DNA from: an uncultured Chloroflexia bacterium
GTDB taxonomy: Bacteria > Chloroflexota > Ktedonobacteria > Ktedonobacterales > Ktedonobacteraceae
Direction of reading: 5' to 3'
NCBI GenBank assembly: GCA_963767715.1
Contig: CAVYFA010000001.1
Location: forward strand, 67,517-131,516
Length of the DNA: 64,000 bases
Part shown: positions 1-55,004 of the stretch, one piece after another
Layout: every line of letters begins with the position of its first letter
How positions within the stretch are numbered: position 1 is the first letter of the stretch
Notes under the pieces: model-generated
The model's database searches: none
The model's input: only the letters and a program-made list of their open reading frames with translations
What the model was told of the DNA's origin: nothing
Translations under genes and position numbers: made by a program

Positions 1-32
1 AGCCACCAACAGATCAACTTGTATAAATATAT

Positions 33-989: not shown

Positions 990-1097
990 CTTCAACCTCC
1001 CTTATCGCCACACTGGCCTGACCATGCTATAATGCGCCTTGAACATTTCCACTTTCTACAGAGAGCACAAGAATAAAGAAGGTGGAAGACCCTCAGC

Positions 1098-5500: not shown

Positions 5501-5506
5501 AATGCC

Positions 5507-19966: not shown

Positions 19967-21674
19967 ATGGAAAAATACGTTGAGGCTCCCCCATCTCCTC
20001 CCGAACCGACTGAGCAAAAGCGGGAGAGGCCATCATTTGCGGCCCCGCTCGTGACGCTTTTCGGCATGCTTGCATTAATCCTGTGCACGCTATTTATGGC
20101 CGCGCCCATGACGCGCCTGGCGGGTACGCCGGTGAGCGCGCTGATCCCCGGGGGAAGCATGCTTGTGCATGCCGGCTCCTGGCTGCCCAGAAACTTGCAT
20201 ATAGCTTCAGATGCCTACAGCAACCAGATTGGGACGGGGAACGTCGAATTTTTGCTGCTCATGGCCATAGCTTTCGGCGTCTACGGCGTTTGCGCGCTGT
20301 TAACGCAACTATTCCTGCGCCGGTCTACCCGGCGGGGCATCCTCGCGATGATCTGGCTGGGAGCGATTGTGGCCGGCCTCATTTTTCTCTTGACTCCGGC
20401 GCTGCTTTCCCACGATCTATTCGTCTACGCCGGATATGGTCGCCTCATGGATGCTTATCACGCCAATCCCTATTTTGTGCCGCTCTCCGCCTACCGGCAT
20501 GACCCGATCTATCCTCTCGATGACTGGGGAGCCTACACATCCGCCTATGGCCCGCTGTGGATGGTAGTGTGCTCGATCGGTCTCGTTCATTGCGGGTGCG
20601 CACCCTTTGAGGTATATTCTCCTCTTCCGACTCCTGGGATTACTCGCTCATCTCGTCAATATCCAACTGGTGTTCCTCATCCTGCGCAAGATGGAGCGCT
20701 CGCCGCGCATGGTCATACTCGGTACGATGCTGTATGCCTGGAACCCGCTGGTCCTGTTAGAGAGCAGCCAGGGCGCGCACAACGACATCTTCATGATTAC
20801 GTTCATACTGCTGGGCATCTTTTTTCTGGTTCAAGTAGAAAAGGAAACGCCAATGCGTTGGAGAAGCGCGATCCTGCCCATCGTCGCGCTAACGCTGGCC
20901 GCGCTGGTGAAATACACGACTATTCCCCTGGTCGCCCTGGCCATTATCATGCTGGTTTTCCGAGCGCTGCGCGCGGATACAAGCGGCTCCCACAAAGCAC
21001 GCGAGATGATCGCCCGCCGCTGGAAACCTGCTCTGCTGGTGGGACTAACCGGATGCATCACGAGCGGCATTGTGATTCTTGCATTTTACGGCCCATTCTT
21101 TTTCGGACACAGCTTCCGGGCAATTGTAGATAGCTTTACTAATCCACCCTCCTCGCGTGGGTCCCATAAGTCGATCCTCGACGCCATCGTTCTGCAGTTG
21201 ACAAATGCTCCCCCACCACCTCACACCTGGCTCCATGGGCTGCTATCCCGCTTATCAAGTCTAAAGCTCTGGGACCTCATTAACATTATCACGCTTGCAG
21301 GTGACCTCATCATCGACGCGATCTGGCTCTGGCGAAAACCCACCACGCGCACATTCGTCCTGGCATCCCTTCTGACGCTGGGCGCCTTCTTGCTTGTCGC
21401 CCCCTGGTTCTTGCCCTGGTATGCAACCTGGCTGGTTGCCCTGGCCGCGGTGAGCCTGCCGGTCAGCCGCAGCCCTATCGCGCGCGGACTGGTGGCGTTT
21501 GCTCTGACCTTCTCGGTCTCAGTATTCATTCTCTACCTGTACAATGGGCATCCTCCTTACAATATCTGGAACCTGTTGAGCTGCCTGTACACGTTCGTGC
21601 CGCCGGTCGTGGCCTTCTTCATCGCGCTGCTCCCCTGGCCCCGCATAGCGCGCCCGGTAATGGCGACCGCGTAA
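19967..21674 (+). CDS. Polytopic membrane protein (~570 aa), possibly a GT-C-type glycosyltransferase or DUF2029-like; one frameshift at ~20577-20590
   Basis: More than 12 predicted TM helices. The frame switches after 'WMVVCSIG' into 'VSFIAGAHPLRYILLFRLLGLLAHLVN', apparently from an extra G in 'atcggtc'. The motif 'YAWNPLVLLESSQGAHND' is reminiscent of membrane mannosyltransferase-like families. Confidence 0.45.
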
Positions 21675-32819: not shown

Positions 32820-34827
32820 CTATTTCGAATCCTCACGAGTTTGTTCGATCAAGGTCGTAATTTCCTTTATAAGGGCCTTCTCGATAGAATAGGGGATAAC
32901 CTCGTGCAGACATTGTTCTGCAAGTGAAATGATATACATTTTGCTCTTATCATCCGCCGTGTGAAAAACTTTGAGAAGTTCTCTCATTATGCGATTCGTG
33001 ATACTTCTATCTTTACGGCTTAAATATGCTACAGCGAGCAAAAATGGTTCCCACCAGGTTTTATCAGGGTAAGATCCTTTAGTAACCAAATCCCTAACTA
33101 CGAACGAGCGAGCACGCCGATGATTGATGTTGCGAATGATATAGCGAGCAGCAAAATATTCTTGAAAAGTCTGATGATAAAATCCATATTCATTACCTAC
33201 ACAACGAACAAAAAGGCCACTGCGTTCACGAATACGCTCTAAAAATTGCTCAGCATCTTGCACTAAGTTAGTATTCATTGAGTGCCTTAGTGAAAGAATA
33301 ACTTCATCATGAGGTATAAATTTACGACCTTCTGACTGCATCGTTACAGCAAGGTCACCAAGACAGTTTATGGCCCAAGATTCTCGATTGGTGGAAGCGC
33401 CCTGCTTTCGCTATGACCTTCTAGTAGAAGACTTGTAGCTACTTCAAATAGTTCAATGCGTTGGCTAGGGAAATCCACTTTCTCCTCCCGAAAAAAAACC
33501 ACTACTAACAAGTAAAGCAACAAAGGATTGCTTGCTAGGTATTCCAAGTGAACATCACTATTAATAGCATCACCCAGGGTTTTCGCTCTTTTCTTTGCTT
33601 CGTCCAAAACCTCATTTTGTCTTAAATGAAAGCCTGGATTATTGGTAGCAAATTCGCGGCAATAGTCATTTAATAATTGTTCGATCTGAGTCCGTGTCAA
33701 GAGCGCGAGGGTGTAGAAAAAACATTCTACATCAGGAAATGCGTTGTGATCGAAACAAGCGGCTCGTGAAGTAATAAGGAAGCGATTATAAAAAGCAAGG
33801 CGTCCTCTCTTATAATATTTGATAAAACCATTGATGTCTCTCTGGACCCGAATGCGAATTTCTCTACCTACCTCGTCTAAACCATCAAATAACACAATGC
33901 ATCTCCCATCTTTCAGATACCTTTGAAGGATAGGAAAATGATCTTTCCAGTTTTCCTGCAAATATGATGTGATGGTAGCATCCATATGTCCGTCCTCGAT
34001 AAATTTAACATACTCTCTTAAGTTCAACAATATAGGAAATAATAGGGGATGAAGGCTTTGAAATACAGACAAATTGTAAATAAAATCGCTGCTCTTAAGA
34101 ATTGACGCTGCATTATTTAATCTGAGAAGCACGAGCATTCGCTCAGCAATATCATGCCAGCGATTTAGATGCTTAGTGGCCATATGGAAAGCAAGCCCTG
34201 CTAAGAGGGTGCTTTTCCCCATACCAGGATAACCGAGAATGACAGCTACCGGTCTTTCTCTCGTCAATCCATTCCAAATATAAGGAAAGTTGATTCTATT
34301 ATCCTCTTCAAGAGGTCCATACCAGCTTTTCTCATTCTTGAATAGCAGATACTCCTCAAATAGAGAGTTATTATTAATAGGAAATTCGTCATCGGCGTAT
34401 TCGGGTAGAAATCAGGAGAGGAAAAAATTGTCTTTAGCAAGGCGCTTCGACCTCTTATGTAAGTAGGGAGTCCTTCTGGAATAAGCATTTCCGTTTCCAC
34501 CTTCACGGAATGGAGATAATCACTCAACAACTTTCTTTGTGAAGGAGGGATTTCGACATCTCTTACTAAGAAGAAAAGGAATCGCAAGAGAAAGAGTATC
34601 AAAAATAGTAGGATGACGCTAATTGGATTTTGAAAACTCCATTCAAAAGCAGATCGGAGGTGATTAAGCCATAATTGGGGTAATGGTATAATTGGGCTTA
34701 CAGTATTGGCTACTATATCCACGAAAACGGCAAGAATAACAGAAATAAATACAAAATTTATGATAGGATTTAAAGTGCGGGATACTTTTGCAAGGAAAAC
34801 ACGTTGAGTAGAATCTTTATCTTGCAC
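32820..34827 (-). CDS. STAND NTPase (NACHT-like) with an N-terminal transmembrane region, on AT-rich DNA; currently split into three ORFs (34264-34827, 33368-34267, 32820-33341)
   Basis: Walker A 'VAVILGYPGMGKSTLLAGL', Walker B 'CIVLFDGLDEV', 'FLITSRAACF' (the NACHT arginine/sensor region) and a helical C-terminal extension. The upstream ORF encodes about four TM helices and overlaps by ATGA. GC is far lower than the surrounding genome. Confidence 0.6.
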
Positions 34828-35126
34828 GTTCGAACCCTTTCTACTGCAGAAACACGTTGTCTTTTCGGCTTATCAGATCAAGCTAGCAATTCGTTTTTCA
34901 GTGTAAAATGGTAGTGACGTTTGCGTTGTTTCGTGTAATAGCATTTACACAAGAGTAATAGAATGCTTGACACGAAATATTAATCAGAATATACTACCAA
35001 AGTATAAATAAATCAATTAAGGAATTGGGTTGAATTTGTTTTCGGATTAGTAGAAGGCGCTTTCTACAGAGGAAAAAGGCTTATGGAGCCCTATAACTTG
35101 TCGGCAAAAAGAGAGGAATAGTACTT

Positions 35127-35752
35127 ATGGAAGACCTCGAATCCCAGGATAGCCACGATTCACTATCTTTCGAACCTGCCAGTTCAGCAGTCGAAACCGC
35201 TGAGATGGAAGTTGCTAATTCATCCTCCATGGGGATATACCGGGATGTAATCGAGCAGGCGATTTTGCCACTACTTGTGGAATTGCGCGAACTTCGCCAG
35301 GACTTCGATACCAAGATCAAGTATGACGAGAGCAAAGAACGTCAGGTAGACAGCCTCCACAGAGAGTTGCAAAGCTACCGTGAGGGACTGCATTTTAAGA
35401 TTTACGCCCCCTCTTCATCGACCTCATCGCTGTGTATGATGATTTTGCTAAGCTCACAGAGAGTATGTCACTCCTTGAGTCGAATGATATCTCAAGTCAA
35501 ACCGTTGACAATCTGAGGTCATTCCAGGAAACGATTGAAGATATTTTAAATCGTAATGGGGTCGAGTCCTATAGCGTTGAAGGAGATAATTATATTCCCA
35601 ACCGGCAGCGCGTCTTGCAGGTCGTTGACACATTCGACCCTGCACAGGATAGGCTGGTTGCACGCCGAATACGTAAGGGTTTTGAGTATGAGGGCCGGGT
35701 GATACGTCCTGAAATCATCGCAACGTATAAAACTAGACAGGACAAAGAATAA
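35127..35752 (+). CDS. GrpE-like nucleotide exchange factor (frameshift at the CCCCC run ~35405)
   Basis: The C-terminal ORF 'FDPAQDRLVARRIRKGFEYEGRVIRPEIIATYK' matches the GrpE β-domain. N-terminal helical region is present. The frame break coincides with a 5-C homopolymer. Confidence 0.6.
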
Positions 35753-35808
35753 CCATTTCCTTTAACTAGAAAGTGATTCAGATAAAATTTAGATACTAGA
35801 GAGGAAGA

Positions 35809-37482
35809 ATGATAATGAGCAACGAGGAAACCGTAGTATTCGGGATCGACCTCGGTACAACCTATTCGTGTATCGCTTATGTTGATGAGTATGGCAAGCC
35901 GGAAGTCGTCACAAATGAAGAGGGTGAACGTACAACCCCCTCTGTCGTTTTGTTTGAAAGCGCTGATGAAAGGGTCGTGGGTAAGGTCGCCAAAGAAAGT
36001 GCGGTGCTCTACCCAACGAAAGTGATCCAGATGGTGAAACGACATATGGGTGAGGAGAACTGGGAGCTCGAGTGTGATGGATTGCATTTCACCGCCGAGG
36101 AAATATCTTCCTACATTCTGCGCAAGCTGGCAAAGGATACAGAAGCTCAACTCGGCCGCCCGGTCACAGACGTGGTGATTACTTGCCCTGCCTATTTTGG
36201 TATTGCTGAGCGCGAGGCTACCGCCAACGCCGGAGAAATAGCCGGGCTGAACGTGCGTGAGGTGATTAACGAGCCAACCGCAGCAGCTATTGTTTACGGC
36301 CTCCAGAATGAACAGGATCAGGTTGTACTTGTCTATGACTTGGGCGGTGGTACCTTTGATATCACGGTGATCGAGATTAAAGCTGGCACAATTACCGTTG
36401 TGGCTACGGGCGGTGACCACAATCTGGGAGGCAAAGATTGGGATGCCGTAATTGTGGAATATCTGGCGCAGCAATGGATGGATGAGGCTAGTTCCTCGGA
36501 CGATCCCACAAGTTCTGAGGAGACATTACAGGACCTGTGGTTACGCGCGGAATCAGCAAAGCGGACACTCTCCGCTAAACAGGAAACCAATGTTCCTGTC
36601 ACTCATGCAGGCCAGCGCAAGGGAATTGTATTAACACGCGACAAATTCAACGAACTGACTAACAATTTGCTCGAAAGAACTATAGATTTTACCAAATCAA
36701 CGATTGAGGCAGCGAAGAGTCGCGGCTACACGCAATTTGATCAAATTTTGCTGGTGGGTGGCTCGACTCGCATGCCTCAGGTACAGGAACGCTTGAAGGC
36801 AGAGTTTAGTATCCCACTCAAGATGCATGATCCTGATGAGTCGGTCGCGAAAGGCGCCGCGATCTACGCACAGAAACTGACGCTCGATCAGAAGATCCAG
36901 CATAAAATTGCTGAGCTAACAGGCACAAAGATTGATAATGTTGATCAATCCAAGGTCTCTGAGCAGGTGCTGGAGCGTGCGCAACAGGAAGTAGCTCGCG
37001 ATTTCAGGCTTAAAAATCGGCATGGTGAAAAAGTACGCCGAGATGGAAGTTACCAACGTGGCAAGCCACAGTTTCGGTATTATCGCGATAGATGCAAGGA
37101 CAAACTCGGAGGTCATCTCCAACATTGTGCTTGCCAACCAACCCGTCCCCGCTTTCCAGACGAAAACATTCCATACCCTTGAAGCGGGGCAGCGTGAAGC
37201 CGACTCAAAGTCATGGAGAACGGATACGAGACTGAGGTCGTCAACGACATCACTGCTGGTGAAGAGATTGGCAAAGCGTTGCTGTCATTGCCTTCTGGAT
37301 TGCCCATCAATACACCGGTCGAGGTCACGTTTGAGCTAAACCGAGAAGGGAGGCTCCAGGTGATCGGTCGAGAACCAAGAAGCAATGCAACTATCGAGGT
37401 TACTGTACAGACGAAGCGGGGAATGTCTGAAGAAGAGGTGGAGCAGGCGAAGACTCGTGCAAACCGTGTAGCCATTTCATAG
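35809..37482 (+). CDS. Divergent Hsp70/DnaK-family ATPase (#1), ~555 aa, two apparent frameshifts in the substrate-binding-like region (~37030-37210)
   Basis: NBD motifs 'VFGIDLGTTYSCIAY', 'DLGGGTFDITVIEI', 'GGSTRMPQVQERL', 'DPDESVAKGAAIYA'. The C-terminal β-rich segment continues in ORFs 37022-37339 and 37213-37482. Confidence 0.85.
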
Positions 37483-37567
37483 TCGGTGCGTAATAATTTT
37501 GTAAAAATGTAATTGACGACATCTAGTTTAAGTACCAATCAGGGGCCTTCCCTAGAGGGAGGATAGG

Positions 37568-39645
37568 TTGAATAGTTTTGTCGGCATCGATCTCGGAACA
37601 ACTTACTCCGTGATTGCCTTCATCAATGCAAACGGCAAGCCAGAAATTATCCCTAACGAGTATGGACATGCGACGACTCCTTCAGTCGTCTACCTTGGTG
37701 GCGAGAAGCTGGTTGTCGGCGAAGATGCCAAAGAATTCCAGGCCATGGGGAAACAGGAGGTTGCCTCTTTTTTCAAGCGCAACATGGACGATATCTACTT
37801 TATGCTGTCGTTCAATGGAAGAACTACACTCCTGTAGACCTCTCAGCAGAAGTTCTTGCGTATATGAAAGCCCAGGCAGAGCGTCATTTGGGCAGTCCGG
37901 TAATCGATGCCGTGATTACTGTTCCTGCCTATTTCACACACGTGCAACGTTCCGCAACAATCAAAGCCGGGCGTAAGGCGGGCTTGAACGTCCTTAAGAT
38001 TATAAGCGAACCTACTGCCGCCGCACTGGCCTATGGGTTGCGCCCCAGCAACGAAAGACAGCGCGTGCTGGTTTACGACCTTGGTGGTGGCACCTTTGAC
38101 ATTTCGTTAGTTGAGATTACTCCCAACGAAATCAAAGTGCTGACCACTAATGGAGATCACAATCTGGGTGGCAAAGACTGGGATGATCGCTTAATAGAAT
38201 ACGTCGATAGCCTGTTCCGTGCGGAATTCAGCACGGACCTGATTGGGGACGACTTTAGCGAGTTGCGCATCCAGTCTGAAAGACTTAAGCAAACACTCTC
38301 TTCGCGCCAAAGCGGGGAGGTCCGCGTGCAGGCAGCAGGCAATGCCGGTACCTATTCAGTGACAAGGGAGAAGTTCGAGGAGCTTACGCTCGACTTAATG
38401 GAACGCACACAAATGCTGACAGAGCTTGTCTTGTCTGAAAAAGGCCTGACCTGGCAAGACCTCGATGGCGTTTTGCCCGTTGGCGGTTCGACCCGGATGC
38501 CAATGGTGCGTAACTATATCCAGCGTATGTCGGGGAAACCTCCCATGGCGGGCATCAATCCCGACGAAGCGGTTGCTCTGGGCGCTGCCATTCAAGCAGG
38601 CATGGAGATAGAGACGGGGCGAGATGCCAATCAGCCGATTTTTCGCCTAGCTGGGCGTAAATCCACCACAGACGTGATCGCTCACAGCCTGGGCATGATT
38701 GCAGTAAACGACGACCGTACGCGCTATATCAATAGTATTCTAATCGGAAAAGACCTGGAAATACCCTCAGCAAAAACACGACCTTACACAATGAACATCC
38801 GCCAACGGAGCGAGACGGAAATGGAGGTCTTTTTGACGCAGGGCGAGAGCGAAGACCCCCAGCAATGCGCCTATCTTGGCCGATATATCTTCTCAGATTT
38901 TCCGCCCATTGCCAGTAAAACAACGCCTGTGGATGTAACCTATGAGTACGATAAAAATGGTGTCGTGCACGTCTCCGCTGTCGAACGTTCAGCCGGTACG
39001 CCCTTGAAATTGCGTGTCGAGCCGGTTCCTCCTGATGTACCAGCGCGTTTTACCGGGTCGCCTAAAGATCAAGAAGTGCGCGAACATTTAACGGTATACC
39101 TGGCCTTCGACCTTTCTGGCAGTATGAGCGGTCGCCCACTTAAAGAAGCGAAGCGAGCCGCCGAGAAATTTGTCAGTCAGTGCGACTTGTCCTCTACCTC
39201 GCTAGGCTTGATCTCCTTCTCGGATAGCGTACAAGTTGACCAGAGCGCAACTCAAAATGGGAGAGAGATCATGCGGGCCATTGCCGGTCTCACCATCGGG
39301 CGAACCGGATATGGAAACCTCGGTCACCCCTTTAATGAATTATATAATCGCCTGATGCAGGCTCCAGGTATACGTTATGCAATCGTGTTGGCCGATGGTG
39401 TCTGGTCCCACCAGGACACCGCTATCAAGCACGCGAAACATTGCCATGAGGCTGGCATTGAAATAATCGCCATCGGCTTTGGAGGAGCCGATCGCGCATT
39501 CCTTGCGAAAATCGCATCGTCGTCCGAACAGAGTTTTTTCACAGACATGAGTCGGCTGGCAGAAACATTCAGCACCATCGCTCAGGAACTGACAGAGTCG
39601 GGAGGCGAAAAACGGCCCTTTGGAAAATTGGGCTGGAAGCCTTAA
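37568..39645 (+). CDS. Hsp70/DnaK-family ATPase (#2) fused to a C-terminal von Willebrand factor A (vWA) domain; one frameshift ~37815-37825 (aaa to aa)
   Basis: NBD 'FVGIDLGTTYSVIAF', 'DLGGGTFDISLVEI', 'GGSTRMPMVRNY', 'NPDEAVALGAAIQA'. C-terminal MIDAS 'VYLAFDLSGSMSG' plus 'IVLADGVW'. GGGAGGA RBS with a TTG start. Confidence 0.85.
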
Positions 39646-39681
39646 ACGAGAGTAGTTATAGAAGCGGAGATCTCGTAAAAA

Positions 39682-42600
39682 ATGGCTGGAGAGCAAACGA
39701 CCGCCAAACCTAACTTTTTCATTCTGCTCGGGTTCCATCCCGATGATCCCTGGGATCAGAAGAAGTTTGAGGAGACGCTGAAAGCGAAACGCGGTGAATG
39801 GTCGCGCAAAAGCAGCGGCGTAGGTAATGTGGAATGGAGGCCAGGAGAAATCTCGCGCTCTACGGTGAGATTAAGCAGTCATGGCCGACAAGACCAGGCG
39901 CGACGCCGAGGCAGAAGCAGCCAGAAAGGAACGGCTGGCGGGGCAAAGCGCGAAAATAGACCAGTTCGAGCGGCAGGTAGAAATGCTCGCCAGAAAAAGC
40001 TTTCTGGAACAAACCGAAGTTGACAGACTGGTTGCTGACTTTAAGGATGTTCTCACAGAACGAGAGATCAGAGCCGTATTAAAGTGCCGGTTAAAGCATC
40101 CGATCCCCAGGTCGGAAAAACGCAACAACAACTTGAGCCAGCGACTGTCAAGGCCATCAACCAGCGGCTCCAACCGCTCCAAAAGAAAGACCTCTATGAC
40201 TTGCTGGGGATGTCACCGAGCGTCTCAAGCGATCAACTTCTCAAGGCCGCACAAGCACTGGCCGAAGATATGCTGCGCCGCCAGCCAAAGACGCAGGAAG
40301 TCACCATGCAGGCGGAACTGGCGGGTCACGCAAAAACGATTTTCAAAACCCAGGAGATGCGCCAGAAGTACAACGAATCTTTGCGTTATAGCACTCTGAA
40401 TGCGCTTTTAGAGGAGTTTGAGCAAACCGTCGCCATTCAAAAGGGTCGCCTTTATGCCGGGCAGGTGGCCACGTTTCTGGAACAGGCAGCCCGCGCGCGC
40501 TGGTCAAAGGAAGAAGCGCGCGCCAAGTTGAACGAGTATGCCAAAAAGCGAAGTTGGTTGTCGAGGTGCCGACTATCGAGATCGGCAACGAGAAACAGCG
40601 CTGCGGTGACTGTGAAACGATGAACGACAAAGGGCGCGAATATTGTGTCAAGTGCAACGGTCAACTCCGTTTCACCTGCCCAGATTGCGGCAACGCTGTT
40701 AGCTCTGACGAAGTTGGATGCGGCAAATGTGGTTTTCCCGTTGGCAATCGCTACTGGGTCGATAGCCTTCTCACTGAATGCCAGACGCTGCTGACTCAGC
40801 ACGATCTGAAGGCTGCCAATGAGCAACTCATGCTGGCGGAAGAGGCCTGGACGCCAAAGAAACCCGATACCCGTCTCAAGCGGATCCAGGAGTATCGCGC
40901 CGAAATCCGCCGCCATGAGCAGGCTCAACAGCAGAATATTGAGCAACTGAAAGCATATATCAATAAGCACCAATTCTTCACCGCGCGCGATTACCTGGCA
41001 CAGCAGCCACCGGATGCCCTCCCCGATAAAGAGAGCTATCTGCAAATCATCACGGGCGAAATTACCCAGGCCCAGGCACTGCTTAAAAAGACCAGGACAA
41101 TCACCGATACTACTCAGAAGTTTGATCTGTGTGTTCAGGCGCTGCGCATCTGCACAGATTATCAAGAGGCGCGAGATGTCTTGAGCACTACCCCACCTTC
41201 CCCCCCCAAGAATCTCAGCGTAAAGGTTGGCGACTCCACAATCAGCTTACAGTGGAACCCCTCGCCGACACGCGACGTCAGCTACATAATTGTGCGTAAA
41301 ACGCGCTCGCGGCCGGTATCGGTGAAAGACGGGCAAATTCTCGCAAGGGTCGGCGGGCGCATGTACGATGACACACAACCGGAAATTGGCATATCGACCT
41401 TCTACTCCGTTTTTGCTGCCTTTGAAGATATTACTTCTATCGAGGCCGCCACACTGCAGCACCCCATTATGCTTACAGCAGAAGTGGAAGACATAAAAAA
41501 GCGTATTGACAATCGGCTGGTCGAGCTGACCTGGAAAGCTCCTCAAAATGTTCATACAATCATGGTTGTGCGCAAGGAGAAAATGGCTCCTGCTTCCGTC
41601 GAGGACGGGGTAAAGGTCGCGCCGCTAGACCTGCAGCACTTGGTTGATCGAACCGTGAAAAACGAGTGCCTCTACTTTTATAGCATTTTCTGTCAGTTCA
41701 AAGATCATGATGCACGCATTATCACAACGACAGGGATGACGGTAAACGCAACACCAGAAACGCCTCCTGAGATCATCCGGCGTTGGATATTTCGAGCCAG
41801 AAAGTTGTCAAGGGCTACGATGTAAAGCTGCGTTGGGCCACACCCCCCAAGGGTGAGGTCGTCATACTTAAATCAGCGCAGCCTCTTGCTGTGAGAGCCG
41901 GTGAAGCACTGGCGATACGCGAACTCACCCGCTTTGGAAATTTACTGAAAGAACATCCCGATTCCTGCACCGATCGAGAGGCACATCCAGGTGTCGCATA
42001 CTACACGCCGGTCGTTATTTTTCAGGGTACCGCCTATGTCGGTGCGGCGCAACGTCTTGCGTTGATAGACGACGTGAGCGATCTCAGATATCAAAATCTC
42101 GGCTCGGCCATACGTTTAAACTGGAACTGGCCCGCGAATTGCCAGGAGGCTATAGTCGCCTTCGACTATAATGGGTATCCGCAGTTAAACGGCAGAACGC
42201 CCAATGCGCACAAAGTGATGCGCGCAGAATATGAGCACAGAGGATTTTATGATATTCGCGGAAACATGGAGCGAGATCACTATATCGTCGTGGCGGCAGT
42301 AATCCGGCAGGGCAATGACGAGATAATTGGTCCTGGCGCACGGGTGCAGGCTCGCCTGATCAGCAAGATTGTTCTGAGCTATGAGATCAAGCTTCCACGC
42401 TTGTTCGGCCCAAAGAAGCGTATACTCAGCATCTCATCGCGTACGGCAGGCAAATTGCCCAACCTGCTACTGGTGAGCAAACAGGGCCGATTGCCCTTGC
42501 GCCGGGAGGAAGGTGAAGCCTATTTTCGCCTGCAGGGGCCAATCCCGATTGAGAGTACGCTGGAATTTGAATTGCCGGACAAGTCGTTCGGCCCTAAAAC

Positions 42601-42688
42601 GTTCGGCAAACTCTATCTTGAAGATGATGGACTGTATGAGATGGTGACGATTCACCATCCCAGCGAAGATAAGTTGAGGCTTTCATAA
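39682..42688 (+). CDS. Large multidomain protein (~1000 aa, 3-4 frameshifts): degenerate J-like N-terminal segments, a double zinc ribbon and four FN3-like β-sandwich repeats
   Basis: 'NFFILLGFHPDDPWDQKKFEETLKAKRGEW' and 'DLYDLLGMSPSVSSDQLLKAAQAL' look like J-domain helices but lack HPD. 'CGDCETMN...CVKCNG...CPDCGNAV...CGKCGFPV' is a double zinc ribbon. Repeats are marked by 'PPKNLSVKVGDSTISLQWNPS', 'LVELTWKAPQN', 'VKLRWATPPKG', 'IRLNWNWPAN'. Confidence 0.45.
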
Positions 42689-42692
42689 TGCA

Positions 42693-43861
42693 ATGTTAGG
42701 CCAAAAGATTATCTGCCCATTCTGCTTCGAATCATTTTCGGTCCAGGAAATACAATTTCGCTGCCTCAATCCCAGTTGCACTGGACGAGCGGTCGATCAG
42801 ATCTATGCCGAAGCGCGAAATGTCCCACCATTGCAGATGGGCCACGTAATCAGCGCAAAAAAGACCTCTTTCGGGGTGGCCCGTACGGTCGATTGTGATG
42901 TGTGCAAGAAGGAAGCGCGCACGCGCCTCTGTCCCAGGTGCCATTTTGAGCTTTCCCACGATGTAGGGCAGGTCGATCAAAAAATCATTGCGATTATCGG
43001 CGGCAGCAATACCGGTAAGAGCCACTACATCGCTTCGCTAATCACTCGTTTGCAGCATGTCGTTGGCGGGAACTTCAATTTCGCCGTCTCTATGCTCGGT
43101 GACGGCACAAGAGAACGCTGGCACAGGGATTTCTACACGCCCCTCTTTGAGAACAAGCGGGTGCTTCAGCCAACACAGCGCTCAACTGTCGATACCATTG
43201 TAAAGACCCCACTGATCTTCCGGCTGACATTCAAAGATGGCAACAACATACGAGCATTGAATATCAGCTTCTTCGATACTGCAGGTGAGGATATGTCCAA
43301 ACTACAGGTCGATGCCCTCTCAGTTGAAGCCCGTTATATCTGCAAAGCTGATGGGTTGATCGTTTTGCTCGACCCTCTCCAGATCGAAAGCGTTCGCCAA
43401 CAATTACCCAACATACAAAAGCCATAGCCAGACCCGATGGCACGCCCCGAATTTATCGTTGAGCGTCTACGCGAGCTGATGGAAGGCTATCATAATCTGT
43501 CCGGTTCGAAAAAAATTTCTATTCCGGTCGCTTTCACTTTCTCCAAAGTCGATACGCTCAGGAGCATTGTTGCTCCTGATTCGGCATTCTCCAGCACAGC
43601 ACGCACTATGGTGAGCTTGACCTCCCCGACGTACAATCGGTGAGTACCGAAATCGGTAACTACGTGCAAGCCTGGATTAATACCGGTTTCTACAATGAGA
43701 TCGATTATAAATTCGCCAACTATCGTTTCTTCGGCGTCTCTTCCCTGGGCAACCAACCTGATTCTTCTGGACAGGTCAAGGTCGAGCCGCTGCGCGTTGA
43801 GGACCCTTTCCTGTGGATACTGCATCAGTTTAAGATGGTCAAAGGGAAGAAAGGGAGGTAA
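42693..43861 (+). CDS. Double-zinc-ribbon-fused P-loop GTPase (~390 aa; frameshifts at ~43430 and ~43640)
   Basis: N-terminal 'CPFCFE...CLNPSCTG...CDVCKKE...CPRCHFE'. G1 'IIGGSNTGKSH', G3 'FFDTAGED', G4 'FTFSKVD', G5-like 'GVSSLG'. The C-terminal 'VEDPFLWIL' is shared with the 47122 paralogue. It starts 4 nt after the previous stop. Confidence 0.65.
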
Positions 43862-43863
43862 TT

Positions 43864-46800
43864 ATGGCGGTTTTCCAGCATTATTACACATCATACGTCA
43901 ATAGGGAGACAGGAAGCGCGGGATTTCAGGTCAAAGCGATGTCGCCCGGAATCGCCGCCGATACGCAATCGACCATTACACGCCTGATATCATATCGTAT
44001 TCCTTCCAGGCTTGACGAGTACGCTATCTCTACACATCCCGTGGCTTTGCGTTACTACTATCGAAATCCGCAAGAAGCGATTTTACTGTGCAGTCAATCC
44101 AATGGGACTGACGAAAATGGGCGTCCCGGCAATTTTTTTGCGCATAGCCTGGTAGTCGAGCCCGACTTTTTCGCCAGTATGCCGCCTATTTTATACTGGC
44201 GCAGCCCTTTCTGGCGTACAAAGGACCCAGGATCAAGCGCGGTGATAGAGCCGATAGAAAGCCTGGAAGAGATCGCAACAGCGCTTGATATCGAGGGGGT
44301 ATGGCATTTCCTCGCTCAAGGAAAACGCATCGAACAATTCCATAAGCTCATGAGCGCCGTCGTGCATTGCAACAGTACACAACGCCGCATTGTGATTATT
44401 GACAACGCAGATAACGTTGCGCAGTGGATCGCGGCGATCACGATCATGTTGCCGCCCGACTACCGGCCATTACTCAGTTTTGCCACCTATCATCATGATC
44501 CCTACCAGTCGCAATTTATGGTGACGGGCACGACCAGCGATTCTTCGTTCCGCGCTTCGCCTGAAGAGTATATGAGCTACTTCATACTGAACACACAGAA
44601 CGGCAAGATCAGTGATGTCGAAGCTTCGCCTTACGCCGATGAAGCTGTCAGAGCTGCTCGCTCTTATGAAATCTACGAGTCGAAACTGCTCTCTCTTATC
44701 ACAGATACCGTGCCGCGTTTCCAGCGTCCAACCCGCATTGATGAGCAACTCGATTCAATGGCGTTGTATGCAGGGATGCTCGAGCCAAACCACGCGTTCT
44801 CTTTAAACAGAGAAGAACTGGAAGCAATAAGTGTAGTCCTGACAACATTTGAACAGATGCGCGTTTTTACGCAAGAAGACCTGGACGAAGTGCGACAGAT
44901 AAGCTATCTGCTCCAGGAAACATCTTGGTCCCAGAGTGCTGAGGATATCGATGTCGAAAGCCGGCGTGTGGTCACTCTGCTCAGAAAACATAAAGCGCCA
45001 ACAGAACAGTCAGCGCTACGTGAGATAAAGTATATCACACAGCACCTTATCAACGATGTAGATATATCGTCATCACTCCAACGCCTGGAAAACATGCGCC
45101 AGATTTACGGCGAAGATCTATTGATCGATATTGTCAACAGTACTAACTACCTACAATGGCTGAACAAGCTTGCCGAAACAATCAATGCAGCACAACTGTC
45201 ACAAATCTGGAAATACCTGGCTGTTTATCTCAATCCAGGCCCCCACAGCCAACCTTTTACGATAGCCAGTTTAACAATCGTGGGGATACTCTGGAGTGAC
45301 AAACAGGCCCAGAAAGACGTAAGAAGGGCGATCGAGGCTATGGTACAGGCAATGGCTGGACAGGAAGCTGCCTGGCTGGAACTAATTGCGGCAAACTACA
45401 ATGTGCTGCCAGACGGGATACTCCTTCGTTACTACTGCTGGATGATGGTTGGCCGATTCCCTCTTGACAACCGCCTACCCTATCGAGAGATTGTGCAGCG
45501 TGTGATTCCCCACATCATTAAAAATGAGCTTGTCCACGAAATCTCTAAAGCCGGTGAAGCCAATAGTCTTGCGATACTGGAGGAATGGGTTGATCATGCC
45601 AGAAAGAATCACTTGGTATCGCTCACAGATTTGCTGATCGAAGGTATTAAACGTATCTTGAGGAATACCCCAGATGGAAAAGCGCCAGAGATGGCAGCGA
45701 AAATTTTAGTGAATGAAAGGTTGGCGCCACTGCCAACGGAATTGGAGAATGATCTTGTTTCTACAGCCATATCACAGGTTTCACTGAGCCATTACTCGCC
45801 CTTAGTGCTGGAGTTATGTAAGAAGTACAGAAACCGGCATGGCCTCTCATCCGATATTCGCGCCGTCATGGATGGGCTGATAGCCATGTCAAGCGGAGAG
45901 TTGGATGAGGAACTCGCGAAGCGCCTGCAAGACAGATTTGCTAGCATGCGACCAGAAGCGTACGAGGCGGATACAAAGAGCTTTGTAACTCGATTTCTCC
46001 AGGTTTGTACCACGGGTCGCTCTCATCAGCTCATGATAAATACCTTCTTCGATTGGGATTACCCTAAGACATTTTGGCAAGTCTACTGGCGTGCATTCAC
46101 GGGATTGCTAACCTATCCAGATACCTCAAGAGTGGATCAGGCGATGAAACTCTTGTCGTTCTGGTTCAGTGCTAGACCGGATGACTTTGAAAGCGCGTAT
46201 CTCTTACACAACTTTCTCATGGATTTACCTCAAAAACTTGAAGAGGTGCAGGAGACCCGCGGCTTCCAAGAGGCAGCACGATATATCAATTCTAGGGCCG
46301 AATCAGAGCGATGGTATCCTCTGGTGCAGGATTACTTTTCGGGTCGAACTAGTGCTTTGCAGACAGTAGGGCGAACCCTGGCTACGCATATCCAGAAACT
46401 CAGAGCAGAAGATAGTGAAAAGGCCGCCCGACAGGCAGAAAAAGAGCAGAGAGAACGCGCAGCCCTTGATGAGCGCATCTCAGCGATGTTTGATAAGAGG
46501 AAATCGAGCCAGTATCATCTTCGGATAGTTGGCGATGTCTATGAATGGCAACAGCGTGAGCTTTTCTGGTCAATTTATTGGAGCCATTTCAAATCTTTGT
46601 TCACCTCTGAGAATAATGCGCAGTGCATTCTTGATCTCTTCCACTTCTGGTTTGACGACTCGTTCTCAGTTCTGCCACAGAAAGGATATATTCCCCGGCA
46701 GTTCTTCCTCAAATTGCACGATGCTTTGATGGAGGCGCAGAAAGAGCGAGGTTTCCGTGAGCTCGCTCGCAACATCTTTAGAATAGGAAAGCAACAGGTG

Positions 46801-46878
46801 CAAGTCTACCCATGGTTTGTATTGATACAACCCTACCTTGAGGAACAGGAAAAGCGGTTTGGTATCTTCAGGCGATAA
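43864..46878 (+). CDS. Large (1004 aa) predominantly α-helical protein of unknown function; candidate GTPase-associated component
   Basis: GGAGG RBS. Uninterrupted ORF. N-terminal α/β-like region 'MAVFQHYYTSYVNRETGSAGFQVKAMSPGI' followed by ~800 aa of helical repeats. It lies between the two DZR-GTPase genes. Confidence 0.55.
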   Translation: MAVFQHYYTSYVNRETGSAGFQVKAMSPGIAADTQSTITRLISYRIPSRLDEYAISTHPVALRYYYRNPQEAILLCSQSNGTDENGRPGNFFAHSLVVEPDFFASMPPILYWRSPFWRTKDPGSSAVIEPIESLEEIATALDIEGVWHFLAQGKRIEQFHKLMSAVVHCNSTQRRIVIIDNADNVAQWIAAITIMLPPDYRPLLSFATYHHDPYQSQFMVTGTTSDSSFRASPEEYMSYFILNTQNGKISDVEASPYADEAVRAARSYEIYESKLLSLITDTVPRFQRPTRIDEQLDSMALYAGMLEPNHAFSLNREELEAISVVLTTFEQMRVFTQEDLDEVRQISYLLQETSWSQSAEDIDVESRRVVTLLRKHKAPTEQSALREIKYITQHLINDVDISSSLQRLENMRQIYGEDLLIDIVNSTNYLQWLNKLAETINAAQLSQIWKYLAVYLNPGPHSQPFTIASLTIVGILWSDKQAQKDVRRAIEAMVQAMAGQEAAWLELIAANYNVLPDGILLRYYCWMMVGRFPLDNRLPYREIVQRVIPHIIKNELVHEISKAGEANSLAILEEWVDHARKNHLVSLTDLLIEGIKRILRNTPDGKAPEMAAKILVNERLAPLPTELENDLVSTAISQVSLSHYSPLVLELCKKYRNRHGLSSDIRAVMDGLIAMSSGELDEELAKRLQDRFASMRPEAYEADTKSFVTRFLQVCTTGRSHQLMINTFFDWDYPKTFWQVYWRAFTGLLTYPDTSRVDQAMKLLSFWFSARPDDFESAYLLHNFLMDLPQKLEEVQETRGFQEAARYINSRAESERWYPLVQDYFSGRTSALQTVGRTLATHIQKLRAEDSEKAARQAEKEQRERAALDERISAMFDKRKSSQYHLRIVGDVYEWQQRELFWSIYWSHFKSLFTSENNAQCILDLFHFWFDDSFSVLPQKGYIPRQFFLKLHDALMEAQKERGFRELARNIFRIGKQQVQVYPWFVLIQPYLEEQEKRFGIFRR

Positions 46879-46906
46879 AAGTGTCGCAGAAAGGAAAGAG
46901 TTTACA

Positions 46907-47104
46907 ATGGACGATGGGTGCGTAGCAATCCTTGGCTTTATCGTGATTGCTGCTATTGCGATTGCTCTGATCGTGTATGTGGTTTTACCACTAAGTTTGT
47001 TCTTACTTGGTAGCGTTGTTGCCGCTGGAACGGTCTCTGGAGTAGGGGTAGCAGGGAAAAACTTTTACGAATTACTCGTAGAAGCTCACAAAACCATAAA
47101 GTAA
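46907..47104 (+). CDS. Small (65 aa) two-TM membrane protein
   Basis: AGGAAAGAG RBS. 'CVAILGFIVIAAIAIALIVYVVLPLSLFLLGSVVAAGTVSGVGVAG'. Confidence 0.4.
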   Translation: MDDGCVAILGFIVIAAIAIALIVYVVLPLSLFLLGSVVAAGTVSGVGVAGKNFYELLVEAHKTIK

Positions 47105-47121
47105 GTAGAAAGGGATGCCAT

Positions 47122-48654
47122 ATGGCTATTTTCGAACCCCAACCCGCATTTAAGATATACGCGTTTGAACGGGGCTGGCGCATAATGAAATATGTCACAG
47201 AGAACCTCTTCAAGCGCACCGATGTTGCTGCTCGCTGGTGGTTTACAAAGGCGGAAGATGCTAAGACGCGCAGTACAACTCAGGGAGCATTTGTAAAGTA
47301 CTGGATGTATGTATATATGGCAGGGCTGTATCTGGCTGGTGGTGCGCAGTACGTTTCCGCCATGATACTGGCTGCTCTATTTCTGCTAGTACAGTCAATC
47401 CTCCTCTCGCTCTGGGTTGTGTTCTCTATCATTACCATAGGCATCCTTTGGCTCTGTACATTTGCCTACTCGCGCCTCTATCGCATATTCTACCGCTGCC
47501 CTGACTGTCACAAGGAAATGAGCATCCCCACCTTCATTTGCCCGAACTGTAGCGAGAAGCATTCGCAATTGTGGCCCAGTATCTACGGCATCGTCTCACA
47601 TTGTTGCATCAAGTGCAATACCAGGCTCCCCACATTGCGCATAGATATTCCGGGGATGAAACTCAAGAAACGCGATAGCCTCGTTCGCATTTGCCCAAAT
47701 TGCTCCAGTCAGATCAACGCAGCCATTGGAACGGGGACAAATATTCATTTCCCAGTTGTAGGAGGACCTTCCACAGGTAAATCAAACTTCATCGTCATGG
47801 CCACGAAAGAATTTATCCAAACCTATGGCGATGAGCATCACTACTCGATCTCCTTCACTGATAGTAGGCACGAGCTAGATTTCAATGAGAATGTCAGGCG
47901 ACTCTCGACCGGACACGCGCTAGTCGCGACGACGGAGGTTGTGGCTCGGGCCTATAACCTGAAGATCCAATCTCCGAAAGCGCATGTGCCGAAGATTGCC
48001 TACATATACGATGCCGCAGGTGAGGCATACAACACCAGTGAGAACACCTCACAGCAAGAATATTACAAGTATATCGATGGGATAATCTTCGTGATTGATC
48101 CTTTCTCTATTCCGACTTACCGCAGCCAGCATGTCCAGGCAATTGAACACTATCAGAATCTGATCCGCCCAAGTTCGCTGGATGTAATGCAGGCATACGA
48201 GCGCATGTTCAATATGTTTGAAGATTTTGCAGGCTTGCGCAAGGGACGTCGCTTTACTCATCCGATCGCGGTCGTGGTGACAAAAGTCGATGCGCTCAAC
48301 CTGGAATTTGAGATTGGATCAATTGCCGCTCAGCAGACAATGAGTACCACTCCTTCTCTAGCATCTGAGGGCGATGCAATTAATTTGCTGGTACGCAACT
48401 TCCTGTGCCAGAACGACCTTGATCACTTCGTCCGCGATATCGAAATGCAATTCTCTAATGTGCGCTACTTCTCCTGTTCTGCACTTGGACGTATGCCGGT
48501 GCAAGAGGATAACCGCAGCTTCATGCCCGTGCGCGTCAGTGACCCGTTTATCTGGCTACTAGCACGCACTAAAGCTATCGACGCCATACCGAATACCGGA
48601 AGGGTAACGCGCGTCCTCGGCCCACAAGTCATGACTATGCGACAAGAGAACTAA
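47122..48654 (+). CDS. Membrane-anchored double-zinc-ribbon GTPase (paralogue of the 42693 gene), 510 aa, intact
   Basis: TM helices 'YLAGGAQYVSAMILAALFLLVQSILLSLWVVFSIITIGILWL'. 'CPDCHKE...CPNCSEKH...CCIKCNT...CPNCSSQ'. G1 'VVGGPSTGKSN', G3 'IYDAAGEA', G4 'VVTKVDA', G5 'CSALG'. C-terminal 'VSDPFIWLL'. Confidence 0.7.
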   Translation: MAIFEPQPAFKIYAFERGWRIMKYVTENLFKRTDVAARWWFTKAEDAKTRSTTQGAFVKYWMYVYMAGLYLAGGAQYVSAMILAALFLLVQSILLSLWVVFSIITIGILWLCTFAYSRLYRIFYRCPDCHKEMSIPTFICPNCSEKHSQLWPSIYGIVSHCCIKCNTRLPTLRIDIPGMKLKKRDSLVRICPNCSSQINAAIGTGTNIHFPVVGGPSTGKSNFIVMATKEFIQTYGDEHHYSISFTDSRHELDFNENVRRLSTGHALVATTEVVARAYNLKIQSPKAHVPKIAYIYDAAGEAYNTSENTSQQEYYKYIDGIIFVIDPFSIPTYRSQHVQAIEHYQNLIRPSSLDVMQAYERMFNMFEDFAGLRKGRRFTHPIAVVVTKVDALNLEFEIGSIAAQQTMSTTPSLASEGDAINLLVRNFLCQNDLDHFVRDIEMQFSNVRYFSCSALGRMPVQEDNRSFMPVRVSDPFIWLLARTKAIDAIPNTGRVTRVLGPQVMTMRQEN

Positions 48655-49136: not shown

Positions 49137-49903
49137 TTGATTATGCATAATCGTGAAGGGGCAGAATTTACCGAGAGGCAATCTCAAAGTAAGGATAATG
49201 CATTTGAAAGACGTCACGCAGGCTTCAGGTCTAGTAGAGATGCAGGAGCTCAAAGTGACGCATATAACGCTAATGAGCGAGTTAAAACGGCATCAAGCAG
49301 ACTGGAAGATGGTAATCGGCATCGGGTTTTTAGATCGGAGGAGACTTCTACCAAAGCCCAGCAAGATAAAGTCATGAGTATTCTGACCTGAGTGGCCAGG
49401 AAACAGAGAGAAGACAATTTTCTACAATTGAAGGACGCACTGTTCGGTTATCCCAGGAGGAAATCAAAGCGGTCAAATCGGCACTGGCTACTGAGCAAAG
49501 TATAGACAAAAACCGGTTTCCGCCTGAAAAGACGGCTGCGGCTGTTGAAGGTGGACCCTGCACCCTTAGTGGATGGGAACATGGGAAAGAGGATTTTGTA
49601 CAGGCAATGGAAGATGTGAGAATACGCTCTCAGCAAATTGGGCACGAGCTGAGGCCCCACAAGCTATTCGATAGAGGAGTTCCTGGACGATTCAATGCAT
49701 CTCATGCAGAGAAGCAGATATCAGTCGTTGCTCCTGATAAACCAATTGCTGTCTCAAAGCCAATGTGCTCAGATTGCCAATCATATTTTCGAGCCACCGC
49801 ACGATACACAGAGAAATCGCAAGTCGTTGCTGATTCTCGTGTAGTGAGGATTTTTTATCCTGATGGTAGAGTTGTAGAGTTACCAAAAAGTACATTTGCA
49901 TAA
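49137..49903 (+). CDS. Candidate toxin: charged N-terminal region joined (frameshift ~49388) to a C-terminal deaminase-fold-like domain (HAE...PMCxxC)
   Basis: 'GRFNASHAEKQISVVAPDKPIAVSKPMCSDCQSYF' has the zinc-ligand spacing (H-x-E, then ~24 aa, then PC-xx-C) of the nucleic-acid/nucleotide deaminase superfamily. The reading frame is open from 49388 without an ATG and continues the 49137 ORF after a 1-nt shift. Confidence 0.35.
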
Positions 49904-49916
49904 TAGGAGCAAAATA

Positions 49917-50582
49917 ATGTCGCTTCCAACTGAATTGACCCAGGTCATCAAGAATGCGCAGGATGCTGTGGAGAAGCATCCATACCACGATTTAAATCTT
50001 GGTTATCGACAGGCTATCTGGGCCGCTCTTGGGCCTTCTCTAAAAACATCTCAAAGAGGTGGTAACAATGCCGGTTTAAAGAGGCGCGCCTTTTTAGCAA
50101 TACTAACAACGCGATATGTCTTGCCAATTTGGGAACGGGTCAGGCCAGAAGATCATATCCTACAAGACCTGCTTGCCGAAGCGGAGCAGGTTTTGACCGG
50201 CACTGTTGACAAGGAAACGGCCTGGAATGATAGAGACCGGTTTTGGGTATATTTTGTTGATATGGGGAACGAAGATGAAAAAAAACAAATCATTTCAGGC
50301 GTGGGTTTTGCTGCAGTTCATGCTCTTACTGTTGCGTTGCAGGATGAAAGTTTTGATCCTTCTAACATAAACTACAATCTCACGGATGCTGACATAGACC
50401 CGGACGAGATGGACTCCTCCTTCTTCGCTGCCTCTACCTATGCCAATGGTCCGGTTTCGGAACCAGATTCTGATGCTGAGAAACGACGAGATTTTTGGGA
50501 GTGGTGGTCAACCAGGCCGTTCCTGCTGCCTGGAATGCTGCTTCTTAAAGAGCGCATAGTAATGCTTGACTCAAGCGTATAG
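49917..50582 (+). CDS. Candidate immunity protein (acidic, helical, ~220 aa), overlapping the end of the deaminase-like gene
   Basis: AGGAG RBS inside the last codons of the upstream gene, with ATG at 49917. The operonic overlap is typical of toxin-immunity pairs. There is no recognisable catalytic motif. Confidence 0.4.
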   Translation: MSLPTELTQVIKNAQDAVEKHPYHDLNLGYRQAIWAALGPSLKTSQRGGNNAGLKRRAFLAILTTRYVLPIWERVRPEDHILQDLLAEAEQVLTGTVDKETAWNDRDRFWVYFVDMGNEDEKKQIISGVGFAAVHALTVALQDESFDPSNINYNLTDADIDPDEMDSSFFAASTYANGPVSEPDSDAEKRRDFWEWWSTRPFLLPGMLLLKERIVMLDSSV

Positions 50583-54500: not shown

Positions 54501-54673
54501 CTATAGCCAGGGCGGCTCAAACTATCGTCAGCAACTGGCTTGGCGAGTCAAAGAATGCTGCTCTCCCGGACCTGGCCTATTGCGCCGCCCTTCATGTAGA
54601 GTCAGAGACAGGATTGACCGAGTATGAACAGAGGAAGTTCGGAGAATCGCTCAGCACGGAATTGCTCACCTAG
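51581..54673 (+). CDS. HerA/FtsK-superfamily (DUF87-like) ATPase, ~1000 aa, fragmented by several frameshifts
   Basis: Walker A in an alternate frame at ~52700-52760 'IDLDDLAKHGVVVGVTGSGKTTTVMNLL'. 'VIFEEAHRLL' (53465-53500). 'EVRAYGQGVLVAEQIPAKLAPDVLKNTNLKIAHRLVAQDDRQSV' matches the HerA-type 'EGRKyGvgl..SQRPs.l...vlsqcnt.ialrl' block. The ~210-aa C-terminal helical domain is intact. Confidence 0.55.
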
Positions 54674-54946
54674 AGCTTTCTCATTGCTTATATAATCTGA
54701 TAGAGTATTCAAAAAGCGGTAGTCACTCTCGATTGAGATGATGTACCTTTAAAGCCATCTCAAACATACAAGAAGCGATCTTAAGAATCCCTCTGGAAAC
54801 GAGATCGTTTCATTTGACACATGTTTTGCGCCTCACCCCATTACTATAATACGGAAGAAGAGATCGACCACGTTCTGGAACTGCTCGCAACTCTAAAGTA
54901 ACTGCAGCAAATATACAGCGCAGCTTTTTCAGCGTCGGTATCGTCG

Positions 54947-55004
54947 CAGCTAGACAGAAAGAGCAGGATAGAGAACTCCTGCTCTTTCTGTCTAGCTGCG
55001 GTTA
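54947..55004. terminator. Strong bidirectional hairpin (22-bp perfect stem) between the island and convergent ppdK
   Basis: 'GCAGCTAGACAGAAAGAGCAGGatagagaactCCTGCTCTTTCTGTCTAGCTGC' read directly. It ends 18 nt from the ppdK stop. Confidence 0.55.

Follow-up and report, generated by a model that had tools for sequence, protein, structure and literature searches.

The window analysed here is a 64,000-nucleotide stretch of contig CAVYFA010000001.1 from an uncultured bacterium of the Ktedonobacteraceae (Chloroflexota). On its minus strand, positions 32820-34827 are predicted to encode a NACHT-clade STAND NTPase with two N-terminal transmembrane helices (2-TM), and this gene is the terminal one of an island with a predicted GAP1-N2/DO-GTPase/Hsp70-GrpE conflict system, where it lies divergent from the GrpE gene. 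Throughout the text, P numbers denote database homologue proteins, L numbers denote the contigs or loci compared, and alignment A1 comprises the window NACHT and sequences of the P0001-P0012 range. The gene carries the following features:

32820-34827, minus strand: 2-TM NACHT NTPase gene of about 669 residues, with a GTG start at 34825-34827 and a TAG stop at 32820-32822, spread over three frames through two 1-nucleotide deletions
34699-34767, minus strand: predicted transmembrane helix 1 (TM1), residues ~21-43, from the Kyte-Doolittle profile and an AlphaFold2 helix at 4-43
34558-34626, minus strand: predicted transmembrane helix 2 (TM2), residues ~68-90, from the same two sources, with a conserved W..QNP motif ahead of it in a predicted external loop of ~25 residues
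34380-34392 (~34387), minus strand: NACHT frame break a, an apparent 1-nucleotide deletion in the context ACGAATTTCCT, between MTNF and PINNNS, reading ...PDFYPNTPMTNF / PINNNSLFEEYL...
34208-34234, minus strand: Walker A motif (P-loop) GYPGMGKST, of the form GxxGxGK[ST], with columns invariant in alignment A1
33869-33895, minus strand: Walker B motif VLFDGLDEV, with the NACHT signature D-G-L-D-E, invariant in 12 sequences
33383-33395, minus strand: NACHT frame break b, an apparent 1-nucleotide deletion in the context TCCACCAATCGAG, between LPPIE and ESWAINCLG
33147-33182, minus strand: winged-helix motif FYHQTFQEYFAA with the conserved histidine H552, in nearly invariant columns and with a fold match

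Three-frame translation and alignment with homologues showed that the minus-strand open reading frames (ORFs) at 34264-34827, 33368-34267 and 32820-33341 are pieces of one gene. The frame-repaired protein of 669 residues aligned from its first to its last residue with intact P0001 (659 residues, 46% identity) and intact P0002 (697 residues, 45% identity), and these alignments were gap-free at both ORF junctions. Because the intact homologues are continuous over both junctions, the comparison shows 32820-34827 to be one gene. Beyond ~34387 the first ORF continues as NFLLIITLYLRSICY... and STFLIFGMD, and these last ~40 residues are an out-of-frame translation. The candidate that this ORF is a separate small membrane gene was ruled out, since intact homologues run through the junction.

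We compared the repaired protein with the features that define the NACHT clade. What sets NACHT apart among STAND clades, according to Kibby et al. (bioRxiv 10.1101/2022.07.19.500537), is the D[GAS]hDE form of Walker B, and it is present here. TSR and FYHQTFQEYFAA coincide with conserved columns of the protein's family (TSR and FYHQTFQEY in the NACHT module). The Pfam NACHT profile PF05729, also carried by homologues of the window protein, scored 30.8 bits against a gathering score of 26.7, with a match confined to residues 195-223 (the P-loop stretch), and NPHP3_N scored 23.1 bits over residues 189-355, under its cut-off of 24.8. An AlphaFold2 model of the repaired protein (pLDDT 78, pTM 0.72) was compared with the PDB using Foldseek, and all 50 top fold matches were NLRC4, NOD2, NLRP or NAIP, the best being NLRC4 4kxf (E 1e-12), then NOD2 and NLRP3. 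Model and matches together give an NBD-HD1-WHD-HD2 fold with the winged-helix extension. The predicted architecture is thus a 2-TM hairpin, a juxtamembrane flank of ~100 residues and NBD-HD1-WHD-HD2, and in motifs and modelled fold the protein displays every testable hallmark of the NACHT clade of STAND NTPases. Its likeness to NLRC4, NOD2 and NLRP3 lies in this domain order (Foldseek E 1e-12 to 1e-8, TM-score ~0.45-0.5 over ~600 columns), whereas identity to them is 12-15%, the window protein has no LRR, CARD or PYD, and its N-terminus is a hairpin anchor. Neither the AlphaFold2 model nor the PDB fold comparison of the whole model revealed a repeat or ligand-binding domain at the C-terminus.

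The bacterial bNACHT proteins (Kibby et al.) are similar in having a NACHT module with D[GAS]hDE, a winged-helix extension and an N-terminal output module. The window protein differs from them in having no PADLOC match and in belonging to a family of 251 representatives with an N-terminal 2-TM hairpin. PADLOC-DB v2 returned no significant match, the hits being at P-loop level only (mad8, E 0.0035; IetA, E 0.02). EruA (NCBIfam NF058535) reached 38.2 bits over the WHD region (residues 427-572), far under the 1000-bit family cut-off, and the protein is not a member; the PADLOC, NCBIfam and SLATT profiles gave nothing at family level beyond NACHT. Separately, an insertion of ~30-40 residues (residues ~222-262, window ~34040-34165) separates the P-loop helix from the next NBD strand; in alignment A1 it is present in P0001-P0006 and not in P0007-P0012, AlphaFold2 confidence there is low, and it may be an interaction surface.

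In the repaired protein the Kyte-Doolittle profile gave two N-terminal hydrophobic helices, at residues ~21-44 and ~68-90, and AlphaFold2 placed helices at 4-43 and 68-88. A third hydrophobic stretch, residues 428-446, sits within the NACHT helical domain. The tail before TM1 is basic (K4, R9, K14, R17) and probably cytoplasmic, and basic residues also follow TM2. Since basic residues flank TM1 on its near side and TM2 on its far side, the positive-inside rule suggests an N-in/C-in topology, with the NACHT module cytoplasmic at the membrane. Every complete close homologue shares this 2-TM type of N-terminus, and N-terminal transmembrane segments also occur in several unrelated NACHT lineages among the 120 matches. 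A Pfam scan of the whole protein assigned the hairpin to no SLATT family at E <= 0.1.

These data bear on an earlier, sequence-only reading of the locus. That reading had taken the three ORFs for one gene with frame breaks and named GYPGMGKST and VLFDGLDEV as its P-loop NTPase motifs, and both points are borne out, the first by the end-to-end homologue alignment. The findings that it said would count against it, a separate upstream membrane gene with its own stop and start or an NTPase without NACHT motifs, were not encountered: the intact homologues are continuous, and D[GAS]hDE is present. One of its break positions was close (~33341-33368, now 33383-33395); the other (~34264) was wrong, the break lying at ~34387, ~120 nucleotides upstream. 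Of its four or more transmembrane helices, two exist in the true frame and the extra ones belong to the out-of-frame translation. The protein is indeed a predicted membrane-anchored NACHT/STAND NTPase, yet the remark that such tethering is uncommon was overstated, as transmembrane N-termini recur. Finally, its helical C-terminal sensor-like region proved to be mostly the WHD and HD2 of the NACHT module, followed by three or four more helices.

A profile built from the first 190 residues, which cover the hairpin and the juxtamembrane flank, retrieved 251 representatives of 50%-identity clusters among 1.84 billion, with the hairpin module at the N-terminus in every case. The 2-TM NACHT family occurs mainly in Ktedonobacteraceae and other Chloroflexota, and most of its complete members have ~1180-1250 residues. 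The GrpE-linked NACHTs have 659-881 residues (659-699 in the P0001, P0002/L039 and L038 proteins), and the window protein is, against the usual length of complete relatives, a C-terminally minimal form. By this comparison, the long C-terminal part seen in relatives has been lost in the GrpE-linked subclade. A scan of contigs with the NACHT alignment (P-loop plus Walker B patterns) gave, among at least 600 stretches listed, only distant NACHTs of 22-30% identity and no Ktedonobacteria; viral contigs likewise yielded only distant NACHTs and no sign of a phage-borne member of the 2-TM family. Transmembrane modules are listed in many bacterial NACHT clades, and short C-terminal forms exist, as in clade 14 (Kibby et al., 10.1101/2022.07.19.500537). 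Bacterial NACHTs with transmembrane segments are therefore already catalogued, and the architecture is that of a member of a known immune-protein class.

The divergent NACHT/GrpE pair recurs in six distinct loci, namely the window, L001 (P0001), L033 (P0003), L035 (P0005), L038/L053 and L039, with L038/L053 and L039 found independently by way of the island GrpE. All six close-subclade members with readable flanks keep the arrangement. On the far side of the NACHT gene the neighbours differ in all four flanks examined, being an SPFH/Band 7 gene in the window, an ORF in L001, an alpha/beta-hydrolase in L033 and a zinc-ribbon ORF in L035. SPFH/Band 7 proteins are a membrane-scaffold family. The intergenic region holds two promoter-like sites:

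34988-35016, minus strand: promoter-like site toward the NACHT gene, TTGATT-17-TATATT, conserved in four loci
34967-34995, plus strand: promoter-like site toward the GrpE operon, TTGACA-17-TATACT (11/12)

The -10 hexamers of these divergent sigma-70-like sites overlap on opposite strands at 34990-34993. When the intergenic regions of the window, L001, L033 and L035 were aligned (alignment A2), the hexamers were the only strongly conserved columns and the remainder was divergent. The sequence-only reading had rightly seen the gene as flanking the island, yet it missed its status as a conserved divergent companion in six loci, and likewise that the two frame breaks belong to a frameshift pattern running through the whole window.

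These data have to be weighed against a rather unlikely alternative, that of a stand-alone NLR-like defence gene co-resident in the island with no mechanistic link to it, the hairpin being its own effector and sensing being intrinsic to the NACHT/C-terminal region or to the external loop. Single-gene bacterial NACHTs do defend alone (Kibby et al., 10.1101/2022.07.19.500537). Three observations weigh in the same direction and against a functional link. The sampled distant islands (L040, L042/L043, L050/L051 and L052) have no NACHT, and linkage was observed where the island HSP70 shares at least ~72% identity with the L001 protein, measured values being 72-86%. The 2-TM NACHT relatives at 35% identity or less (P0008, P0010, P0011 and P0012) have no GrpE/Hsp70 neighbour: P0008 lies between integrases, P0010 adjoins a TIR-iSTAND/MoxR/vWA ternary system, and P0011 and P0012 lie elsewhere. 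Moreover, the six loci may share one family-level lineage, the synteny being inherited rather than functional. What speaks for the link is that the arrangement is kept in 6 of 6 members at 36-47% NACHT identity, with overlapping and conserved promoter-like hexamers, changing far-side genes and loss of the long C-terminal region in the linked forms.

The GrpE-proximal flank of the distant islands has other contents. In L052 a low-GC TIR...FGE-sulfatase gene (5381-8374, 997 residues) lies directly upstream of GrpE, beside a HerA-like ATPase. In L042 TIR-TIR and PNP_UDP-WD40 genes (3728-6615) lie 3-6 kb upstream of GrpE, and in L040 this flank showed nothing but ordinary enzyme genes. Because distant islands hold TIR, FGE-sulfatase or PNP-WD40 genes there, the flank looks like a variable immune-gene slot.

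The NACHT gene has 39% GC against ~58% in host DNA (0.55-0.60 in the flanks) and ~0.50 in the island (47-53% in its genes), in agreement with the AT-rich codon composition claimed by the sequence-only reading. In all six loci the NACHT GC fraction is 0.355-0.41, compared with 0.45-0.55 in the neighbouring genes. Because 35-41% GC is kept in homologues only 36-47% identical, low GC is a maintained property of the gene, and its interpretation as the mark of a very recent transfer was rejected on the same observation. The NACHTs of the six loci are 36-47% identical in pairwise comparison, whereas the adjacent HSP70s share 68-86% identity with the L001 protein. By region, mean NACHT identity was lowest in the transmembrane hairpin (28%), followed by the C-terminal tail (32%), and was 50% in the WHD. 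The identity rankings also disagreed, as the HSP70 of L001 was nearest to L038/L039 and the NACHT of L001 nearest to the window. Low NACHT identities relative to HSP70, together with the discordant rankings, fit a cassette that evolves fast or is exchanged while its slot stays fixed.

On the other side of the shared intergenic region, 35127-48654 is by its domain content a complete GAP1-N2-type DO-GTPase conflict system with an Hsp70 plus GrpE theme, made up of these genes:

35127-35752, plus strand: GrpE-like gene, one frame break at ~35412
35809-37482, plus strand: HSP70, two frame breaks at ~37006 and ~37200
37568-39645, plus strand: HSP70 fused to vWA, frame break at ~37824
39682-42688, plus strand: zinc-ribbon/FNIII-like protein of ~1000 residues, at least two frame breaks, with weak domain matches
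42693-43858, plus strand: DO-GTPase2, frame break at ~43586
43864-46878, plus strand: GAP1 with GAP1-N2 and GAP1-M domains, intact
47122-48654, plus strand: second DO-GTPase2, with an N-terminal transmembrane block at residues 71-117

A J domain was considered for the FNIII-like protein and was not detectable in domain searches. The transmembrane block of the second DO-GTPase2 provides a membrane context near the NACHT. The set resembles the GAP1-N2 systems treated in Kaur, Burroughs, Iyer and Aravind 2020 (PMC7159879) in its GAP1-N2/GAP1-M protein, two DO-GTPase2 proteins (one with a transmembrane segment), Hsp70, GrpE, vWA fusion, FNIII-like protein and filamentous Chloroflexota host. That text describes the systems as membrane-proximal and the theme as predominantly from actinobacteria and firmicutes, whereas the host here belongs to the Ktedonobacteraceae. 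The main text of that article names no NACHT among GAP1-N2 partners (PMC7159879); here a 2-TM NACHT is a conserved divergent neighbour, in one lineage only. Three features appear undescribed: the promoter-sharing link to a GAP1-N2/Hsp70 system, specific to this lineage, the AT-richness kept across loci, and the shortened C-terminus.

The combined comparisons lead us to propose, at roughly even odds, that the protein acts at the membrane as an NLR-like switch or effector linked with the GAP1-N2/Hsp70 conflict system. Its NTPase switch is intact and its domain arrangement is the autoinhibitory one typical of NLRs. Because the protein holds no enzymatic effector and no sensor repeats, the hairpin is the only candidate output. 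A trigger would drive nucleotide exchange and oligomerisation of the NACHT, and the oligomer could then cluster the 2n transmembrane helices of the hairpins and so permeabilise or depolarise the infected cell's membrane. The NACHT ring might instead serve as a membrane hub or platform for the membrane-bound DO-GTPase. As the GrpE-linked forms are without the long C-terminal region, sensing is probably delegated to the neighbouring FNIII/GAP1/Hsp70-vWA machinery, and the DnaJ requirement of bNACHT25 is a precedent for a NACHT activated through chaperones. In plant ZAR1-type resistosomes, oligomerisation clusters N-terminal helices at the membrane; ZAR1 belongs to the NB-ARC clade and is soluble before activation. 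Two-helix effectors, to which SLATT domains belong, are frequent in GAP1 systems. The window hairpin differs from these in having no SLATT match, and pore formation here would be a proposal by analogy.

A further conjecture, speculative and on balance improbable, would make the 2-TM NACHT the membrane executioner or gate of the GAP1-N2/DO-GTPase system, held and released by the chaperone set (GrpE, Hsp70 and Hsp70-vWA). Sensing by FNIII/GAP1 would lead through chaperone-controlled oligomerisation to membrane perforation, with a hypervariable AT-rich allele swapped among strains. A point against perforation, in the main proposal as well, is that the hairpin matches no known pore-forming family, SLATT or other, in Pfam, and nothing in PADLOC. 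The NACHT immune protein bNACHT25 requires host DnaJ, a co-chaperone of the Hsp70 system, rather than direct ligand binding for its triggering (Conte et al. 2025, PMC12169576). However, that DnaJ is a housekeeping protein and bNACHT25 a soluble nuclease-type NACHT, whereas the chaperones of the window are dedicated island paralogues whose interaction with the NACHT is suggested only by linkage. If the conjecture were true, this would be a single-locus bacterial case of chaperone-licensed NLR activation. In eukaryotes, HSP90/SGT1 provide chaperone licensing of NLRs. If the linkage is functional, the locus would offer a compact and genetically tractable NLR-like NACHT coupled to dedicated Hsp70/GrpE chaperones and a membrane GTPase switch, bearing on how chaperones hold off and license STAND/NLR proteins and on the output of GAP1/DO-GTPase systems.

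The hairpin would also suit a role as a sensor or scaffold anchored in the membrane, with no executioner function. Hairpin and loop would then localise the protein or report envelope events, and the oligomer would recruit or activate effectors of the island, for instance its Hsp70 assemblies or its membrane DO-GTPase. The conserved W..QNP in the predicted external loop, the membrane-bound GTPase that the island itself possesses, and the Hsp70/tubulin assemblies proposed as GAP1-N2 outputs by Kaur et al. (PMC7159879) are in agreement with it. We nevertheless regard it as very unlikely: the protein has no extracellular domain, the N-terminal position is usually that of the effector in bacterial NACHT proteins (Kibby et al.), and the hairpin is the least conserved part, as would be expected of a generic membrane or effector element more than of a specific receptor.

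The frame breaks raise the question of whether the gene is functional in its host. In L001, the syntenic contig nearest to the window (70% DNA identity across 9.6 kb), all genes are intact. Relative to L001 the window has one break in GrpE, two in HSP70, one in HSP70-vWA, at least two in the FNIII-like gene, one in DO-GTPase2 and two in the NACHT gene. At least 13 frame switches can be counted in the island, with the HerA-like share taken from ORF fragmentation only, and at least five lie in host genes of the window, where the overall rate is roughly one per 3 kb. Pyruvate phosphate dikinase (PPDK; 55022-57801, minus strand), in 65%-GC DNA, has its PPDK_N, mobile and PEP-binding domains in three frames. 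A Rad50/SbcC-like ATPase gene (1098-4242, plus strand) is split at ~3460 into an N-terminal head (1098-3512) and a C-terminal head (3346-4242), a BNR-repeat protein gene (58823-60383, plus strand) changes frame near 59607, and a membrane protein gene (19967-21674, plus strand) changes frame near 20590. Because these host genes are broken as well, the breaks in the NACHT gene are probably assembly indel errors rather than decay, the gene being intact in the organism.

The competing account, a true and recently inactivated pseudogene in a low-GC island that is being lost from this strain, with the breaks as real mutations, is rather unlikely. It draws on several facts that count against assembly error. 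The breaks are denser in the island (~0.6/kb over 32.8-54.7 kb) than in host DNA on average (~0.1-0.2/kb), yet around PPDK, a core metabolic gene that falls into three frames, their local density is similar. None of the break sites is a long homopolymer, and the NACHT gene has T8 and T6 runs that are read correctly, so that homopolymer-type sequencing error was rejected as the specific cause. Two genes, NACHT and HSP70, were repaired and translated, and both are free of internal stop codons. The NACHT deviates at 0 of the 64 positions invariant in the other 11 homologues; for HSP70 the figure is 6 out of 227, in line with its homologues, although these invariant-position tests are powerless against very recent decay. 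The L001 proteins align over their full lengths with small indels only and no large deletion evident, and no break was seen in GAP1 (3 kb) or in the second DO-GTPase2. Recent inactivation of the entire island is conceivable; assembly error is the reading we retain. The frequency of 1-nucleotide indels in this assembly means that ORF-level readings (extra transmembrane helices, apparently separate genes, pseudogenes) are unreliable without frame repair.

Further elements lie beyond the second DO-GTPase2. At 49607-50582 there is an orphan toxin-tip/immunity pair: an ORF of 98 residues with an HAE...CxxC motif matches the C-terminal end of SsdA, a toxin that deaminates ssDNA (PF24120, 49 bits), and an Imm5 immunity protein (E 4e-36) follows directly. 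At 51581-54673 about five same-strand ORF pieces show HerA/FtsK-like sequence motifs, with no Pfam family found in the pieces; they are probably one HerA-like ATPase gene of ~1000 residues broken by frameshifts. Intact HerA-like genes of ~1031 residues (DUF87 match) occur upstream of GrpE in the distant islands L050-L052. Searches for Rfam families, tRNAs and direct or inverted repeats did not delimit the island ends, as neither an RNA element nor a tRNA target nor a flanking repeat marks them. A perfect 24-nucleotide inverted repeat with an 8-nucleotide loop (54945-55000) stands at the right edge of the island, where GC rises from ~50% to 65%, and is likely a terminator or boundary element.

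Two observations concern the left part of the window. A second, shorter RelA/SpoT homologue (HD, RelA_SpoT and TGS; 575 residues) lies at 5507-8100 on the minus strand with an upstream ORF of 289 residues without family, in a low-GC patch (42-47% GC) separate from the island; the housekeeping RelA/SpoT gene is at 14179-16623, and the named best matches of its protein are labelled Ktedonobacteraceae, in agreement with the host's family. At 1-5500 a NurA-domain gene (4208-5500) comes after the Rad50-like ATPase gene.

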